Notes under the pieces: generated by a model
Seen by the model: only the letters and a program-made list of their open reading frames with translations
Databases searched by the model: none
What the model was told of the DNA's origin: nothing
NCBI GenBank assembly: GCA_037443365.1
Contig: JBBIOM010000001.1
Span: forward strand, 91,485 to 155,484
Length of the DNA: 64,000 nucleotides
Reading direction: 5' to 3'
DNA from: Armatimonadota bacterium
GTDB taxonomy: Bacteria; Sysuimicrobiota; Sysuimicrobiia; Sysuimicrobiales; Humicultoraceae
Program-made: the position numbers and the translations under genes
Shown here: positions 50,613 through 57,174 of the stretch, one piece after another
How positions within the stretch are numbered: position 1 is the stretch's first letter
Layout: every line of letters begins with the position of its first letter

Positions 50613-50763
50613 GGGCTGCCTCCTTCGTCCTCCCGGCGAACTCGGTGCGTGAATGCTTTCCGCGCCGCGGAATGCACTCCTGCCCCGATTGGCCGGGTGA
50701 GACGCCTCTGCTACAATTGGGCCGCTCGTGCACCGCACATCCCATGAGAGGTGGTTCTTCGAG

Positions 50764-51726
50764 GTGGCTGAGACGGCGGCAACGCAGACAACGGTTCTCT
50801 CGTACGGATTGGGACCCATAGGAGCCGGCATCGCGGGACTGGCGCTCGACCGCGGGTACCGGATTGTCTCGGCGGTCGACATATCGCCCGACAAGGCCGG
50901 GAGCGACCTGGGCGTCCTGCTGGGACGCGCGAGACTTGGGGTGACGGTGACCGCTGATGTCGCCGCGGCCCTTGCCTGCAAGCCCAGGGTCGTCCTGCAC
51001 TCAACCCAATCGCACATCCCGCAGGTCATGCCCCAGCTCATGGCGTGCATCGAGGCAGGCGCCTGCGTCGTCTCCACATGCGAAGAGCTGGCGTTCCCGT
51101 GGTACCGTCACGACCACGAGGCCAGGCGCCTCGACGCGGCCGCGAAGGCCCACGGCGTCACGATCGTGGGCGTGGGCGTGAACCCCGGATTCGTGATGGA
51201 CCTGCTGCCCATCGTGCTAACGGCGCCCTGCCGCAAGGTGCGCGCCATCCGCGTCACGCGCGTGGTGGATGCGGGGTTGCGCCGCAAGCCCCTCCAGCAG
51301 AAGGTGGGCGACGGCCTCGACCGGGCCACCTTTGAGAAGGGTGTCGCGGAAGGCCGAATGGGGCACGTGGGGCTGCCCGAGTCCGTGGCGATGATCGCCG
51401 ATGCCCTGGGATGGCCGCTCGACTCAATCGAGGAGACGATCGAGCCGGTCATGGAGGGAGCCACGGTGCGCGGCCTGCACCAGGTGGCGAACGGCCTGCA
51501 GAGCAAGGAACCGGTCATCTCGCTGGACCTGACCATGGCCGTGGGCGCGGCGAATCCGCGGGACTCGGTGACAATCGAAGGCGAGCCGCCCATCGCCCTG
51601 ACCGTGTCCGGAGGCATTCACGGCGACGTCGCAACGTGCGCGATATCGGTGAACGCTATCCCGATGGTGCTGGCGTCGCCCCCAGGCCTGACCGCGCCCC
51701 ACCGCCTACCTGCGATCCATCGCTGA
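50764..51726 (+). CDS. NAD(P)-dependent amine dehydrogenase / dihydrodipicolinate reductase-like family protein
   Basis: The ORF has Rossmann motif YGLGPIGAG and later VGVNPGFVMD. It resembles the DapB-related amine dehydrogenase family. The start (50728 or 50764) is uncertain. Confidence 0.55.
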   Translation: MAETAATQTTVLSYGLGPIGAGIAGLALDRGYRIVSAVDISPDKAGSDLGVLLGRARLGVTVTADVAAALACKPRVVLHSTQSHIPQVMPQLMACIEAGACVVSTCEELAFPWYRHDHEARRLDAAAKAHGVTIVGVGVNPGFVMDLLPIVLTAPCRKVRAIRVTRVVDAGLRRKPLQQKVGDGLDRATFEKGVAEGRMGHVGLPESVAMIADALGWPLDSIEETIEPVMEGATVRGLHQVANGLQSKEPVISLDLTMAVGAANPRDSVTIEGEPPIALTVSGGIHGDVATCAISVNAIPMVLASPPGLTAPHRLPAIHR

Positions 51727-52605
51727 TCGGGCGGCGGCTCGCAGAGCGCGTGCGCCCAGGTTGATGAGGTAGGCACCATCGGTCCCGGGCACCGGTAGGA
51801 GGTTCCAGGCAACGCGCAGGAGCGCCGCGGCGGCAAGCAGCGCCGCGGCCTCTCTTTGCGCCGGCAGAGCCAGCCCGGCAATGAGGGCTACTGAACCCAC
51901 CGCGGCATCGCAGAGCGGCCCCCAGGCAGCGATCCTTGCCCGCGCGCGAGGGGGCAGGAGCGCGGCGCCGGCGAGGTGCACGCGGAATCCGATGCTCCAG
52001 GGGGCGGCCTCCACCACGAGCGCGGCCGCGCGGGCGCCCGCGGTCAGCGCCGCAGCGGCGTGGGCCATCTCGTGGGTAAGCCCAAGGATCCAGACCAGGA
52101 ACGCCAGCGCCAGCAGGCGCGACACCTCTGGCTCCGAGTAGAGAGCGCGAAGCCAGCCAGCGTGCTGTGCGCCCAAGACCGCGCCCGCAACCAGCAGCGC
52201 GGCAACCCCGAAAGCCCGCACCCATGCCGGAATCCTGTGCAGCAACCGGCAGAGCGGCAGCATAGCGGCCGCGTTGGCGATGACCACTCGTGACGAGAAG
52301 GGCCTGAGCACTTGCGGCGCCTCGGCGCCGCAGGACACCAGACCAGCATCGACCAGACGTCTCACGAACCGCGCCACGTCCGCCGCGTCCAGTCGCGGCG
52401 CCGCCCCGGCCACATCGCGCGACAGCTCTTCGAGCCCGCGCGTACCGTCCATCAGGGCCAGCAAGGACGCCTCGGGCTCGCCCGCCTGGAAGCAGCGCCC
52501 CCCGGAGGCGTGGACGATCCAGCGCGCACCCCCCTGCCCCCCGACTTCCCTGGTGACGCGCACGCCCGGGAGCAGGCACGGTCGCGCCTGGCTCAGGTCG
52601 TCCAC
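51706..52605 (-). CDS. M50 (site-2 protease-like) zinc metalloprotease with PqqD-like N-terminal domain; putative RiPP leader peptidase
   Basis: This is the C-terminal 300 codons of track ORF 51706..53307, from GTG 52605 (13-nt overlap with the permease stop). It has HExxH inside a TM helix (LGLTHEMAHAAA) and the second M50 motif NxxPxxxxDG (NLLPVPGTDG). The N-terminal about 85 aa follow the PqqD/RRE pattern (LLPGVRVTRE...LLALMDGTRGLEELSRDV). Confidence 0.7.
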   Translation of the reverse strand: MDDLSQARPCLLPGVRVTREVGGQGGARWIVHASGGRCFQAGEPEASLLALMDGTRGLEELSRDVAGAAPRLDAADVARFVRRLVDAGLVSCGAEAPQVLRPFSSRVVIANAAAMLPLCRLLHRIPAWVRAFGVAALLVAGAVLGAQHAGWLRALYSEPEVSRLLALAFLVWILGLTHEMAHAAAALTAGARAAALVVEAAPWSIGFRVHLAGAALLPPRARARIAAWGPLCDAAVGSVALIAGLALPAQREAAALLAAAALLRVAWNLLPVPGTDGAYLINLGARALRAAARSAMDRR

Positions 52606-53318
52606 CTGAACCGCCGCACGGATACAACTGCTCCGATCAGTCCCCACAGCGCCAGCACCCCCAACTCGGTGACGACCGAGGACGCGTCCCCACCGCGGGC
52701 GGCCGCCCTGAGCCCGCGCAAGAAGTATGTCAGCGGAAGCGCGCCGGAGAGGCGCGCCAGCGCGGCGGGCAGCATCTCTACCGGGAAGTAGGCGCCACTC
52801 AGGAACGTCATGGGGAAGAACAGGAAGGCGGCGATCGAGTTCGCGGCCTCGACCGAGCGCGCCAGGACGCCCACCGCGAACCCGGTAGCCAGGAAGGCTG
52901 GTACGCCTACGCACATGACCGCCGCGAGCGTACCCGGCCGAGCAGAGAACCGGACGTCGAAGAGCCCCGCTCCTATGGCCAGCAGCTCCACGCCCACGGC
53001 GAGCACAACCGCCCCGCGCACCAGCATCTGAGCCAGTACGAGCTGCCAGGCCGGGATCGGGACGAGGACCAGGCGCTTGAGGAACCCGCTGCTGCGGTAG
53101 TGGGTCACGACCACACCGATGCTGTAGTAGGCCGTGGATGCCAGCACCATCCCGAGCACGCCCGGGACAAGAAAGACCATCTGCCCGGGTTCGCGCGCGA
53201 ACACGCTGCCCAGCAGCACCAGCAGGAAGGCCGGAAAGAAGAAGGTCCAGAAGGCGGCCTGCGGCGTGCGCCAGAACAGCCTGGCCTCCATCAGGACGAG
53301 GCGCCACAAGCCCGTCAT
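52593..53318 (-). CDS. ABC-2 type transporter permease
   Basis: ORF 52593..53513 trimmed to MTGLWRLVLMEARLFWR at ATG 53318, a 4-nt overlap with the ATPase stop. It has six predicted TM helices typical of ABC-2 exporters. Confidence 0.8.
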   Translation of the reverse strand: MTGLWRLVLMEARLFWRTPQAAFWTFFFPAFLLVLLGSVFAREPGQMVFLVPGVLGMVLASTAYYSIGVVVTHYRSSGFLKRLVLVPIPAWQLVLAQMLVRGAVVLAVGVELLAIGAGLFDVRFSARPGTLAAVMCVGVPAFLATGFAVGVLARSVEAANSIAAFLFFPMTFLSGAYFPVEMLPAALARLSGALPLTYFLRGLRAAARGGDASSVVTELGVLALWGLIGAVVSVRRFRWTT

Positions 53319-54052
53319 GTCGGTCCTCCTGGGAGCGGGGAATCCTGGGTCAGTTCCAGGAAGGTTTCTTCGAGCCCGCCGCGGCCAGCACGCGCCAGCG
53401 CTGCCACGGTGCCCTGCGCGAGTACCCTGCCGCGGTGGATGATGGCCACCCTGTCGCACAGCGACTCGGCCTCGTCCAGGTGATGCGTGGCCAGAAGCAC
53501 GGTGCGCCCGCATGCCCGCGCCTCGTGAATGAGATCCCAGAGATCCCGGCGCGCGTGCGCATCGAGCCCTGCCGTGGGCTCGTCCAGGATCAGGAGCTCG
53601 GGATCTCCGACCAGGGCCAGCGCCAGCAGGAACCGTCGCCGCTGCCCGCCTGAGAGCTGGCCGTACATGGCCGCCGAACGGTCGCCCAGACCTGTCCGGG
53701 CGAGCAGCCGGTGCGCCTCGATACGGCGCGGGTAGAAACCCCCGAGGAACTCCAGCGCCTCCCCCAGGCGCAGGTAAGGGTGGAAGACCGCCTCCTGCAG
53801 CTGCACGCCTATGCGCCGCCGCAGGCCCAGCGCCCCGCCCCGAGGATCGAGCCCCAGCACACGCGCCCGGCCCGCATCAGGGCGCTGCAGCCCCACCAGT
53901 ATCTCGATGGTCGTGGTCTTGCCGGCGCCGTTGCGCCCCAGGAGCCCGAATACCTCGCCTTCCTTGACCTCCAGGTCAAGCCCGTCCAGAGCCACGACGC
54001 TGCCGTACCGCCTGCGCAGGCCTTCCACCTCGATTGCCAGCGCGTCAGGCAT
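53315..54052 (-). CDS. ABC transporter ATP-binding protein (DrrA/SagG-like exporter ATPase)
   Basis: ORF trimmed to MPDALAIEVEGLRRRYG at ATG 54052. It has Walker A GRNGAGKTT, signature LSGGQRRR, and Walker B LILDEP. Confidence 0.9.
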   Translation of the reverse strand: MPDALAIEVEGLRRRYGSVVALDGLDLEVKEGEVFGLLGRNGAGKTTTIEILVGLQRPDAGRARVLGLDPRGGALGLRRRIGVQLQEAVFHPYLRLGEALEFLGGFYPRRIEAHRLLARTGLGDRSAAMYGQLSGGQRRRFLLALALVGDPELLILDEPTAGLDAHARRDLWDLIHEARACGRTVLLATHHLDEAESLCDRVAIIHRGRVLAQGTVAALARAGRGGLEETFLELTQDSPLPGGPT

Positions 54053-54872
54053 CTCCCCGGCCTCCTCGCTCGGGCAGGCAGTCCGGGGGGGGATGCCCCA
54101 CGGCCAGCGCATAGAGGACGCTCGCACGCGTTCCATCGAGCCCCAGCAGCGCGTCCACAAGCGCGTCGTCGAGCCCGCCCAGGGCGACCACGCCAAGGCC
54201 CATCGCAGCGGCTGCCAGGTAGACGTTCTGGGCCGCGTGTCCTGCCTCCAGGAGAACGAAGCGGTATCCCCTGGCCCCGTACCTGTCGATGGTCCGGGCG
54301 AAGACGCCTGCCAGCGCGATCAGCAGACCGGCCTGCAGGACAAGCGCCGGAAACGCTGACGCGGCCGCGAGGTCGCGCATGCTCTGCTCCGGAGGATCCA
54401 GCGCCACGAGCGAGGCGCCTCCTCCGATGGCATCGTAGTGGTATGGGCCGGGATGAACCCCTGCCGGTGGAACAGGAAGCCAGAAGTAGGCATCAATCGG
54501 ATAGCAGGCGCCGGCAGACGGCACCGTTCGGCGCAGGTGGGCGCGGTCCGTGCCTGCGCCGACCGATCCGGCAGACGTCCAGAGCAGCGTCGCGGTCTCC
54601 TGCAGGGCCAGAGGAAGGCCGGCGAACTCCCGGGCAGACCTGCGGCGTTGGAGCACGACGTCCAGCCCGGCGTTGAGGTGGACGCCCGGCTCCGGCCCGG
54701 GAAGAGGCAGGCGGCATCCTCGGCGCGCGCGCGCCGGCGGCGAGCCTCCGGCCCTGGAGTGGGCCGCGGCGCGCCGCGATACCTCGGCCCAATCCGACGG
54801 CCTCCACTTGCTGCTCTCATGGAAGACCTCCCAGAGGGGGTGGCCGGGCATGACACAAGGCTCAAGGGGCAT
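54045..54872 (-). CDS. SagB/ThcOx-type FMN-dependent dehydrogenase (azoline oxidase)
   Basis: ORF trimmed to MPLEPCVMPGHPLWEVFHESSKW at ATG 54872, 11 nt after the ycaO stop. It has nitroreductase-fold motifs RRSAREF, PSAGACYP and LLEAGHAAQN, and the SagB-typical N-terminus FHE.SK. Confidence 0.85.
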   Translation of the reverse strand: MPLEPCVMPGHPLWEVFHESSKWRPSDWAEVSRRAAAHSRAGGSPPARARRGCRLPLPGPEPGVHLNAGLDVVLQRRRSAREFAGLPLALQETATLLWTSAGSVGAGTDRAHLRRTVPSAGACYPIDAYFWLPVPPAGVHPGPYHYDAIGGGASLVALDPPEQSMRDLAAASAFPALVLQAGLLIALAGVFARTIDRYGARGYRFVLLEAGHAAQNVYLAAAAMGLGVVALGGLDDALVDALLGLDGTRASVLYALAVGHPPPDCLPERGGRGDA

Positions 54873-54883
54873 CTGCGCTCCCT

Positions 54884-56218
54884 CTAGGGAAAAGGATGCG
54901 GATGCGTGTTCAGTCCCCCACATCCGGTGAACCCAAGGCGCTCAGGGGCTTCCCAGAGGCGCGTGTATCCCAGGAACCGGTGGGCGTGCGACGGCGCGAT
55001 GTCCAGCAGGCCCGGCACGAGCACCTTGACCGCGAAGAAGCCGCAGGCCGCCAGGTCGGGCGTGGTGACGTCCACCGCCAGCACACGCATGCCGCGCTGA
55101 TCGAGGGACTCCAGGCAGCGCGCAAGGTCGGCCTGGGGTGAGCCGCTCGCGGCGGGTAGGTCCTCCAGGCGCACAGGCTGGGCAGCCGGGTTCACCAGGA
55201 AGTCAAGGTAGGGCAGCGACCCGGGCTGTCCGTAGAGGCGCACGTGATCCGAGAAGCGCCGGACATTGGAGAAGTCCCTTCCGGGATCGAAGCCTGCTCC
55301 TCCGCCCATCTGGCGCAGCCAGGCCCGCGTCTGGACGGCCTCGAGGAGGGCCTTGAGCAGCGCGGCCTCGGGGTCGAGGCGCGCGGCCGCGCCCACGCTC
55401 GCAACACTGGTGCCAGCCCCGGGATCGAGCACGATGCACACGATGACGCTCGCCCCCAGATCAGTGGGCAGCAACCGGCAGAGGAACTGAAGACCGCTGC
55501 GCTCGAGGCGCTCGCGCACGACGCGGGCCAGGGGGCCGCAACGCGGGAGGGGCACCGGCTGCGCGGGCAAACGCCGCCACCAGCAAAGGGCGAAGGCGTC
55601 GCGCTCGATGACCTCGAGCAGGGCCGCCAGGAGGGCCGCGCTGCGCGTGCGGGCGCAGGCGAGCCCCGTGGAGATCGCCGGGCCGATGTTGGCGCACCAG
55701 GGCTCCTCGGGTTCTGCGAGGAACACGCGCTTGGCCGGCACCCAGGCCTCCCTGCCCGTCGCGACGTCGAGCCCGGCCACCCACTCGATCACGGTGTCCT
55801 CCTCGAACCGGGCGTAGGGGAGCCCTGCCTGCCACTGCTCGGGCGAGAACAGCGCATATTCGTCGGGATGCGGGCCGCGCATCTCGCGCCAGGTCGCCCG
55901 CACGATACGGGCGGAATCCGGAAACGAGGCCGCGTAGCGCTCGAGCACCTCTCCGGTGGCCCTGGCCGCGGCGTGCTCGCGCACCAGCCCCACGCCGCTC
56001 GCTGAAAGGACAAACGACTGCCGACGCCCGGGCAGCGCGGTGCGCGCGGCATCGGTGCCGGCCGCGGCCACGCAGGCCACGTCCGGCTCGTCAGGCGGAA
56101 ACTGAATCGCGGCCAGTCCTCCGAGGACGCCAGCCACCGGGTTCGTCAGGCGCCCGGCCTGCTCCAGGGTGCCGGCGGCGTCGCCAGGGTCGAGCTCGGC
56201 TACAACCGCGGCGTGCAC
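54884..56218 (-). CDS. YcaO-type cyclodehydratase (TOMM D protein)
   Basis: 444-aa ORF with YcaO-domain segments (GEVLERYAA, ISTGLACA, ALLEVIERDAF). Its extreme C-terminus HPHPFP gives the PxPxP motif of azoline-forming YcaOs. It overlaps the C-protein stop by 19 nt. Confidence 0.9.
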   Translation of the reverse strand: MHAAVVAELDPGDAAGTLEQAGRLTNPVAGVLGGLAAIQFPPDEPDVACVAAAGTDAARTALPGRRQSFVLSASGVGLVREHAAARATGEVLERYAASFPDSARIVRATWREMRGPHPDEYALFSPEQWQAGLPYARFEEDTVIEWVAGLDVATGREAWVPAKRVFLAEPEEPWCANIGPAISTGLACARTRSAALLAALLEVIERDAFALCWWRRLPAQPVPLPRCGPLARVVRERLERSGLQFLCRLLPTDLGASVIVCIVLDPGAGTSVASVGAAARLDPEAALLKALLEAVQTRAWLRQMGGGAGFDPGRDFSNVRRFSDHVRLYGQPGSLPYLDFLVNPAAQPVRLEDLPAASGSPQADLARCLESLDQRGMRVLAVDVTTPDLAACGFFAVKVLVPGLLDIAPSHAHRFLGYTRLWEAPERLGFTGCGGLNTHPHPFP

Positions 56219-57174
56219 TGCACCGGAGCCTCACGACGAAACGGCCGGGCCGAAGCACACGCCGGGCAGCGCGGCAGGCGGAGCACGTCGGCCCGGGTCC
56301 ACGACAGGGTGCGCACGTGGAGCCGGATCACGGCGTCCTCAAGCGCAGGCCGATCGACTCCGAGCAGGGCCTTGAGCGCTTCTACCGCCGCGATGCCGGA
56401 TGCGACCGCCACCACGGCCGGAAGCACGGGCCGGCTGCCCACGCGAATCAGGCGCATAGGGCCTGACGAGAGGGCCTCGGCCCTGACCCGCAGGCAGACC
56501 AGGCACGCCGAGCGACCCGGCACGACGAGCGGGCCGAGCGTGATCTCGGAGGCGTCGGATGCGACCGGGAGCCAGGGCGTCCCGGTCGCGAGACTGATGG
56601 CGTTGAGCCGCTCGAGCGAGGCGTCGCGCATGCCGGCTCCACAGCCCACCAAGAGATCCGCTTCGTCGCAAACGCCGGTCGCTTCCTCTTGGAGGCCATC
56701 CCTTCCGTTGCGGGGGAAAGCGACAACGCGCACCCCGCAGCCGCGCAGCATCTGCAGGACGGCAGCGGACATTCGATCAGATCCCCACAGGCAGACCGTG
56801 GCGCCTTCCACGCGCGCTCTCAGGCGGTCTTCATCGGATGGGCTCGCCAGTGACCGGAGGAACCCCGCGATGCCCGAGCCGTCGTCCTCAAGTTCGACCG
56901 GACGCCCGCGCTCGGACAGCAGGCCGCCTGCGACGAGGCGGGCGATGAGGCACTCTATCTCTTCCGGGGCGCGGTCGGGCGCCGCCTCACATATCTCGCC
57001 TGTTGTGTGCCTTCCGTCCAGCACCGGGAGCAGACCCGGAAGGAGGGCCCCCAGCCTGGATCCAGACAACCGAACGCTTCTCCCGGGCGAACGCATCTCC
57101 ACGTCGTCCTCCCCGACCGTGTACACCGACCAGAAGTCAGGCAGGAACGGCTTGACATCTCCGGGCGTGTCCAC
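56200..57174 (-). CDS. E1/ThiF-like cyclodehydratase partner (TOMM C protein) with N-terminal RRE
   Basis: 324-aa ORF. The N-terminus follows the PqqD-like RRE pattern (VRLSGSRLGALLPGLLPVLDGRHTTGEICE). The Rossmann-like core carries two CxxC pairs (CLVC...CPAC), a Zn-tetrathiolate arrangement as in E1-like proteins. Confidence 0.8.
   Translation of the reverse strand: MDTPGDVKPFLPDFWSVYTVGEDDVEMRSPGRSVRLSGSRLGALLPGLLPVLDGRHTTGEICEAAPDRAPEEIECLIARLVAGGLLSERGRPVELEDDGSGIAGFLRSLASPSDEDRLRARVEGATVCLWGSDRMSAAVLQMLRGCGVRVVAFPRNGRDGLQEEATGVCDEADLLVGCGAGMRDASLERLNAISLATGTPWLPVASDASEITLGPLVVPGRSACLVCLRVRAEALSSGPMRLIRVGSRPVLPAVVAVASGIAAVEALKALLGVDRPALEDAVIRLHVRTLSWTRADVLRLPRCPACASARPFRREAPVQCTPRL

Follow-up and report, generated by a model that had tools for sequence, protein, structure and literature searches.

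Which protease removes the leader from the product of a poly-Cys azole-peptide gene cluster that has no CAAX protease of the sag type? This question is raised by a cassette of seven genes in a 64,000-nucleotide stretch of the genome of an Armatimonadota bacterium (GenBank assembly GCA_037443365.1, contig JBBIOM010000001.1, positions 91,485 to 155,484 of the forward strand; hereafter, the window), the last gene of which (51706–52605, minus strand) encodes a candidate membrane protease. An earlier note, made from the sequence alone, read this protein as a PqqD-like leader-binding domain, i.e., a recognition element (RRE) for peptides that are made on ribosomes and modified after translation (RiPPs), fused to an M50 metalloprotease that would remove the leader at the membrane during export. 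The results of our analysis indicate that a fusion of a leader-binding domain with an M50 protease is almost certainly the identity of the protein. It is probably also the dedicated, leader-guided intramembrane leader peptidase of the cluster, acting at the cytoplasmic face of the membrane just before export by an ATP-binding cassette (ABC) transporter. The latter proposal stands as the best reading of the domain identities, the motifs, and the conservation of the cassette.

The frame runs for 299 codons without interruption, and the strings LLPGVRVTRE, LLALMDGTRGLEELSRDV, and VRRLVDAGLV were each found in the N-terminus of the translated protein. When 1.84 billion representative sequences were searched exhaustively with phmmer, 38 relatives were returned, and two alignments were used throughout, one of a 41-member family (A2) and the other of a 10-member subfamily (A3). 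The gene is real and more than a chance frame, as indicated by full-length relatives (E values 1e-70 to 1e-28) and by a fold predicted with a mean local distance difference test score (pLDDT) of 90.4 when the alignment is supplied. Six database proteins of 300–307 residues, with 53–56% full-length identity to the window protease, all begin with MDDL. At the DNA level, the window and four orthologous loci have the start GTG GAC GA(N) CTG in common with L006, a more distant locus, in a comparison that did not include the copies of G027 and G030. Residues 1–51 are conserved at the protein level across the orthologues, and 38–67% of the codon differences within codons 6–51 are synonymous, which is similar to codons 52–95. 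A start at the downstream Met52 (the Met of MDGTRG), which the note had named as the alternative, is ruled out because the PqqD alignment of the family profile starts as early as profile position 8, so that the conserved PqqD-like domain would be truncated; the conservation of residues 1–51 and the shared GTG speak against it as well.

The C-terminal part is assigned to the M50 family by the profile of the family, by its motifs, and by the predicted fold. When the A2 profile was searched against all PDB sequences, its C-terminal half (positions 173–349) matched the site-2 protease MJ0392 (PDB: 3b4r; E value 4.6e-9), SpoIVFB (PDB: 8vjl; E value 2.5e-5), and RseP-type proteases (E values 3e-4 to 4e-3). 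A phmmer search of the PDB with the window protein alone gave chance-level matches only, e.g., to an epoxide hydrolase (E value 0.15). Individual Pfam scans (E value ≤ 0.01) detected Peptidase_M50 (PF02163) in 34 of the 41 family members, the best E value being 5.8e-11, and the orthologue from L006, which is 37% identical, reaches 29 bits, above the threshold. Both site-2-protease motifs announced in the note are present. HEMAH sits within a hydrophobic segment that is predicted to be a helix (residues 161–188, by hydropathy and by the model), and NLLPVPGTDG begins 86 residues after it. The residues H178, E179, H182, N268, P271, D276, and G277 are invariant in A3 and at least 90% conserved in A2. 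H178, E179, H182, and D276 align onto the zinc ligands and the catalytic Glu of site-2 proteases, with D276 as the predicted third zinc ligand, and this set is intact. The structures of SpoIVFB and RseP are the source of the substrate-docking role of the hairpin in such proteases. By analogy, the hairpin at residues 195–210 may be membrane-reentrant and offer an edge strand on which the substrate docks.

The N-terminal part of the A2 profile (positions 8–77) matched PqqD (PDB: 3g2b, E value 6.9e-7; PDB: 5sxy, E value 1e-4), PbtF (E value 0.0055), TbiB1 (E value 0.02), and TfuB1 (E value 0.056). In individual scans, Pfam PqqD (PF05402) was found in five of the 41 members, with a best E value of 3e-6, and in the L006 orthologue with an E value of 7e-4. 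Together with the fold topology and template modelling (TM) scores of 0.63–0.72 to PqqD and TbiB1, these matches support the statement that the first ~85 residues are PqqD- or RRE-like. For both domains, the predicted assignment draws its support from the family profiles and the modelled fold rather than from the window protein alone. The protein as a whole also matches NF041824, the NCBIfam model of the daptide biosynthesis intramembrane metalloprotease (E value 1.6e-18), with residues 24–294 aligned to positions 14–295 of the 379 in the profile. The daptide class of RiPPs was found via just such an RRE-M50 fusion, and leader removal was assigned to the 'RRE-dependent intramembrane peptidase (MpaP)' (Ren et al. 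2023, bioRxiv 10.1101/2023.03.08.531785; PMC10036551).

In this M50 clade, the module at the cytoplasmic N-terminus looks interchangeable, since distant relatives bear cyclic-nucleotide-binding (cNMP), FHA, or HlyD domains. Three of the 41 members of A2 also carry HlyD domains, and some carry an FHA domain; the HlyD-bearing PqqD-M50 relatives thereby differ from the window protein, which has no periplasmic adaptor domain. Two soil-metagenome relatives of the M50 core (L036:2483-4477 and L042:9011-11155; 29–32% identity) adjoin ATP-grasp genes and have two cNMP-binding domains at the N-terminus in place of the PqqD-like domain. No YcaO gene was found near the distant M50 relatives from the metagenome scan, a result that is uninformative as to the cluster.

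The structure of the protein was predicted with AlphaFold. A run from the single sequence was useless (pLDDT 46) and was superseded by a model based on the A2 alignment (mc96ccb738aaf), which has, besides the pLDDT given above, a predicted TM score of 0.82. The N-terminal domain of the model has three strands followed by three helices, which is the topology of leader-binding domains; residues 105–123 form one strand and a short helix. The membrane part comprises a helix at 127–147, the HExxH helix at 161–188, the hairpin at 195–210, and helices at 219–246 and 248–268, the last ending at N268, and is followed by the turn at DG and a basic helix at 276–298. In a Foldseek search of the PDB, the N-terminal domain was superimposed on PqqD (PDB: 5sxy) with a TM score of 0.63 (on target) and a root-mean-square deviation of 2.9 Å over 87 columns, and on TbiB1 with TM scores of 0.66–0.72. 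The search also returned TruD, LynD, ThcOx, MibB, MadB, TglHI, and TigE, all of which are known carriers of leader-binding domains. The membrane part was matched to SpoIVFB (PDB: 8vjl and 8vjm) and RseP (PDB: 7w6y). As a separate observation, the top Foldseek matches of the N-terminal domain were the carbamoyltransferase GdmN (PDB: 7vzu and 7vx0) and the methyltransferase Rv2067c, which suggests that a domain of leader-binding shape may be present in these enzymes. There are 15 Lys and Arg residues ahead of the first membrane helix and five in the last helix. With this distribution, the cytoplasmic side would, by the positive-inside rule, be that of the N-terminal domain and the hairpin, and also of the DG motif and of the end of the membrane helix that bears HExxH.

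The genes of the cassette are co-directional in the order precursor, C protein, YcaO, SagB, ABC ATPase, ABC-2 permease, and protease (Table 1), so the protease gene does close the cluster, as the note had it. It is the only protease gene there. The note had also supposed that the M50 enzyme stands in for the CAAX protease of sag-type clusters, and this agrees with the gene content: no CAAX/CPBP protease gene occurs in the cluster, the single one of the genome lies on another contig, and no TldD/PmbA gene was detected in the genome. Five other M50 genes are located elsewhere in the genome, including a strong RseP-like one (208 bits), and the cluster protease is therefore not the housekeeping M50 enzyme. 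The genes downstream of the cassette, for an aminotransferase and a diaminopimelate (DAP) dehydrogenase, were considered as cluster members and rejected because they are absent beside the L006 cassette. At its 3' end, the protease gene overlaps by 21 nucleotides a convergent plus-strand gene (50728–51726), which in L001 belongs to the DAP dehydrogenase C-terminal domain family. The same overlap is present in L001, and positions 51706–51726 of the window leave no space for an intervening terminator.

Table 1. Features of the azole-peptide cassette and of its protease (positions in the window)
Feature	Position	Strand	Basis and remarks
Protease gene; 299-residue fusion of leader-binding (PqqD-like) domain and M50 intramembrane metalloprotease	51706..52605	-	GTG start, uninterrupted frame, orthologues, NF041824 match, AlphaFold model
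N-terminal PqqD-like leader-binding domain, residues ~8–95	52321..52584	-	Predicted strands 16–20, 28–32, 38–41; predicted helices 43–50, 58–65, 74–86
M50 site-2-protease-type membrane core, residues 127–299	51709..52227	-	Four membrane helices, beta-hairpin 195–210, basic C-terminal helix; Pfam, profile, Foldseek, hydropathy
HEMAH zinc-binding/catalytic motif, H178, E179, H182 (residues 178–182)	52060..52074	-	Aligns with HELGH of MJ0392 and SpoIVFB
Predicted beta-hairpin, residues 195–210 (strands 195–201, 204–210)	51976..52023	-	Model; between HExxH helix and next membrane helix
NLLPVPGTDG motif, residues 268–277	51775..51804	-	Aligns with NLIPAFPMDG of MJ0392
ABC-2 permease, 241 residues	52593..53318	-	PF01061, E value 7e-25; last 13 nucleotides overlap the protease start
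ABC transporter ATPase, 245 residues, DrrA-type	53315..54052	-	PF00005, E value 1.3e-26
SagB-type azoline dehydrogenase	54045..54872	-	TIGR03605, E value 9e-32; start taken as Met18 of the longest frame, by comparison with L001
YcaO cyclodehydratase (D protein)	54884..56218	-	PF02624, E value 1.6e-64; TIGR03604, 262 bits, above cut-off
C protein (E1/ThiF-like), first leader-binding domain of the cluster	56200..57174	-	TIGR03882, 64 bits, above cut-off
Precursor peptide VELQIVELESMTLFDRGGDIIIACCCCCCCSGGGGGGGENM, 41 residues, poly-Cys; presumed substrate	57303..57428	-	Shares its leader with five further variants

The GTG of the protease gene lies 10 nucleotides before the TGA of the permease gene (window 52593–52605), and five orthologous loci as well as L006 keep the 13-nucleotide overlap of permease stop and protease start. 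GGAGG or GAGG stands 5–10 nucleotides before the start of each of the six other cluster genes, and the protease gene alone is without a Shine-Dalgarno sequence; the sequence GTGCGGCGGTTCAG upstream of its start is conserved within the genus. The position of the GTG together with the missing Shine-Dalgarno sequence suggests that the protease may be translated by reinitiation from the permease, which would set it at a low fixed ratio to the permease. The translational coupling to the exporter proposed in the note is consistent with these features.

The cluster would contain two leader-binding modules. The C protein aligns with TruD (E value 4.9e-8) and LynD (E value 5e-6) from its residue 41 against their residue 34–35, i.e., the alignment starts inside their N-terminal leader-binding domain, and therefore the C protein carries a leader-binding region. 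When the two N-termini of the cluster were compared by BLAST, LLPVLDGRHTTGEI...LIARLVAGGLLS was aligned to LLALMDGTRGLEEL...FVRRLVDAGLVS (E value 0.008). With the PqqD-like N-terminus of the protease, this accords with the two modules counted in the note.

The seven genes occur in identical order in the window, in L001/L002, L004, L033, and L034, all of one genus, and in L006 of another genus; gene order was judged where the contig was long enough, L003 and L005 being short contigs with the end of the cassette only. At least one of the genomes of the genus of L001/L002, L004, L033, and L034 is labelled Candidatus Nitrosymbiomonas, phylum Armatimonadota. The L006 cassette is flanked by genes for a 3-hydroxyacyl-CoA dehydrogenase fusion and an Lhr helicase, versus AdoHcyase and DAP dehydrogenase elsewhere, and because the genes are the same while the flanks differ, the cassette moves as a unit that includes the protease. 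Of the 94 genomes of the phylum surveyed, full-length orthologues of the protease were present in seven of the eight that belong to the genus and in a single one from another genus. Neighboring cassette genes were seen in seven of the eight orthologue-bearing genomes beside G000, and G031 showed a permease and a weak ATPase match only. Such a patchy distribution is typical of accessory biosynthetic clusters. A divergent, longer protease of the same genus (L035, G031:C56, 13747-14784; 313 bits against the A3 profile) has a C-terminal extension like those of P0011-P0014 and adjoins a 65%-identical ABC-2 permease, and its contig ends before any YcaO gene.

The presumed substrate is known in six variants (window 57303-57428; L001:5124-5255; L004:1208-1336; L006:3797-3982; L033:10572-10703; L034:10043-10177). 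They have in common the leader (M)ELQIVELES[V/M]TLFDRG, which is near-invariant within the genus and has the form MDLEILELEEGDVLFDG in L006. Between the leader and the Cys run there is a variable linker of 5–8 residues (GDIIIA, GEPGIG, GEFSPG, DKGEGFAG, DGGGAG), the last of which is always Gly or Ala. All six precursors end in Met, with a run of Gly residues and an acidic one before it (GGGENM, GGDMM, GGDMCM, GGDIM). The note had placed the cut after DIIIA, and this part of the proposal is not supported. The linker varies between orthologous precursors, so DIIIA is not a conserved recognition element. Moreover, in the YcaO mechanism the side chain of Cys attacks the carbonyl of the preceding residue, and a cut exactly after DIIIA would require an unmodified Cys1, because cyclization of Cys1 removes the amide between Ala(-1) and Cys1; cleavage right before Cys1 would conflict with azole formation there. 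A cut somewhere within the linker is more likely.

In the proposed pathway, the C, YcaO, and SagB enzymes would turn the Cys run into thiazoles in the cytoplasm. The N-terminal domain of the protease would then bind the conserved leader (ELQIVELES.TLFD) and thereby bring the variable linker, rich in Gly and Ala, into the active site, which the positive-inside topology puts at the membrane's cytoplasmic face. The leader would be cut off, and the hydrophobic core would be released at the membrane beside the ABC-2 exporter, which would remove it from the cell.

A number of observations weigh against this assignment. Taken alone, the window protein scores 17 bits with Peptidase_M50 (E value 0.0039; gathering threshold 27.2 bits) and 16.8 bits with Peptidase_M50B, and its score with Pfam PqqD is 12.9 bits (E value 0.14, residues 46–90; gathering threshold 23.4 bits). 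In the profile checks that the note had proposed for the two parts, the single protein falls below the thresholds, but the family profile finds both the PqqD similarity (3g2b) and that to the M50 protease 3b4r at the E values given above. The condition that would have refuted the note, an N-terminus with no PqqD/RRE similarity in a profile search, was decided in favor of its reading. The narrower A3 profile matches 3b4r with an E value of only 0.072, and PbtF, its sole N-terminal match, with an E value of 0.079. Both values are marginal, which marks the subfamily of the window protein as a diverged branch. Foldseek probabilities are 0.95–1.0, and the E values for the whole model are weak (≥ 0.014), as is expected for a query of two domains that find their matches separately. 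The score of 67 bits with NF041824, versus an equivalog cut-off of 300 bits, identifies a homologue and not an equivalog. The protease activity of MpaP itself is stated, not assayed, in the founding study (Ren et al. 2023, PMC10036551), and the enzyme is not mentioned in a 2025 follow-up on daptides. In the orthologous cassettes, the protease diverges faster than any other protein, with 49–56% identity as against 82–85% for the ABC-2 permease, 74–76% for YcaO, and ~61% for the C protein; such divergence beside a near-invariant leader is not what one would obviously expect of an enzyme that strictly reads the leader. Finally, when evidence for expression was sought, the locus was found solely in DNA runs from a subsurface metagenome.

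Three other functions were weighed. The protease might mainly serve self-protection or quality control instead of maturation, binding and degrading leader-bearing or unexported peptide at the membrane or clearing spent leaders; together with the ABC-2 pump, it would then make up an immunity module. Its gene stands with the ABC-2 transporter genes, which it overlaps, and not with the modification genes, and the M50 enzyme EpeP is tied to both processing and export, product still being formed when EpeP is deleted (PMC10885120). On the other hand, the presence of a leader-binding domain implies that the enzyme acts on the precursor with its leader still attached, and this is the substrate of maturation; the daptide precedent assigns the same architecture to leader removal, and the cassette has no other protease. 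We consider a protective role unlikely.

The domain might instead dock the precursor in order that the M50 core can trim the C-terminal tail (GG[D/E]xM), an unlinked host protease being left to remove the leader. The membrane M50 enzymes TglG and TmoG do cut RiPP substrates at the C-terminus (PMC10885120), and the similar Met-ending tails of the six precursors (ENM, DMM, DMCM, DIM) are therefore under some constraint. Yet among annotated families the daptide leader peptidase is nearest, not TglG, and a tether of ~30 residues to the first membrane helix puts the segment after the leader, rather than the far C-terminus, near the active site. Moreover, no other protease for the leader is present in the cluster, and tail trimming is accordingly a quite improbable task for the enzyme. 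That the N-terminus is a winged-helix module of a generic kind, binding DNA or a signal, and the enzyme a regulatory site-2 protease that does not act on the peptide but, e.g., releases a regulator, is hardly credible: the A2 profile does weakly match Fur, MarR, and Lrp-type regulators (E values 0.03–0.2) and distant relatives of the M50 core bear other N-terminal sensor domains (cNMP-binding, FHA), but PqqD and RiPP leader-binding proteins outscore every regulator in sequence-profile and fold searches, three strands followed by three helices is the order of leader-binding domains and not that of the classical winged helix, and the cassette contains no gene for an anti-sigma factor or regulator.

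Leader removal by the cluster's own M50 protease remains, then, the function that we favor. Going beyond it, we speculate, with considerable doubt, that the protease and the ABC-2 exporter could form one physical 'cut-and-export' unit, a split and non-homologous counterpart of the peptidase-containing ABC transporters. In such a unit, competition of the two leader-binding domains for the same leader would set the moment at which modification gives way to cleavage, and reinitiation would set the stoichiometry. If this were true, the 299-residue enzyme would be a minimal and tractable model for leader-guided intramembrane proteases. Even apart from this, 299 residues, a confident model, and a 41-residue substrate make up a compact system for studying how a cytoplasmic leader-binding domain feeds an intramembrane active site. 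Azole-peptide clusters that are transferred to other hosts for expression often lack the step that removes the leader, and a likely in-cluster peptidase can now be named for a poly-thiazole family. Its type is not listed for linear azole peptides in a 2023 review of RiPP leader proteases, which gives only M103 metalloproteases for these and M50 enzymes only for epipeptides and pearlins (PMC10885120). In other respects, the finding is an expected extension of a published architecture.

With the structurally solved site-2 proteases MJ0392 (PDB: 3b4r), SpoIVFB (PDB: 8vjl), and RseP (PDB: 7w6x and 7w6y), the window protease shares the HExxH motif in a membrane helix, the NxxPxxxxDG motif in a later helix, and a hairpin after the HExxH helix. 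SpoIVFB also removes an N-terminal pro-sequence from a non-transmembrane substrate, which resembles the task presumed here. Unlike these enzymes, the window protease has neither a PDZ nor a CBS domain, and a PqqD-type domain stands where the module that selects the substrate would be; the substrate would be a small modified peptide instead of a membrane-anchored regulator.

Other RiPP systems resemble the window protease in part. RiPP clusters also encode the membrane M50 enzymes EpeP/YydH (epipeptides) and TglG/TmoG (pearlins), in some cases beside ABC transporters (PMC10885120). These enzymes, which we compared by description, are not described as leader-binding fusions in that source, and TglG/TmoG cut the C-terminus. 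The lasso peptide B protein, either fused or split into B1 and B2, likewise employs a PqqD-like domain to deliver the precursor to a leader peptidase, and TbiB1 and TfuB1 are among the matches of the window protein; its protease, however, is a soluble, transglutaminase-like Cys protease of a different fold, coupled to macrolactam formation (PMC10885120). The TldD/E enzymes (microcin B17, M103) and the CAAX/CPBP proteases of sag-type clusters have, in the same peptide class, the task presumed for the window protease, but belong to unrelated protease families and are without a leader-binding domain.

The closest relatives are the daptide proteases DapP/MpaP, in which, as in the window protein, an N-terminal leader-binding domain precedes an M50 membrane core, the match spanning both domains. 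The clusters are also alike in being RiPP clusters with ABC transporter genes and in that a modification protein (DapB in daptides, the C protein here) supplies a second domain for leader binding; some daptide clusters even include YcaO and azoline dehydrogenase genes (Ren et al. 2023, PMC10036551). They differ in that the window protein is shorter (299 residues versus the 379-position model) and without the C-terminal part, and in that the window cluster has no DUF-RRE DapB, oxidative decarboxylase, class III aminotransferase, or methyltransferase. In addition, daptide precursors end in an invariant Thr, whereas those of the window type end in Met, and daptide hosts are Actinomycetota or Bacillota, whereas the present host belongs to the Armatimonadota. 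On the basis of the NF041824 score, the neighboring genes, and the terminal Met of the precursor, we rejected membership of the cluster in the daptide class. A literature search for PqqD paired with site-2 protease, and for daptide with metalloprotease, gave no match, and the RRE-Finder paper makes no mention of a fusion of leader-binding domain and M50 protease. The architecture and the logic of two leader-binding domains are nevertheless not new, as they have already been published for daptides, and the window protein is a diverged, shorter member of the daptide-type protease family that was recruited to a poly-Cys azole-peptide cluster in the Armatimonadota.

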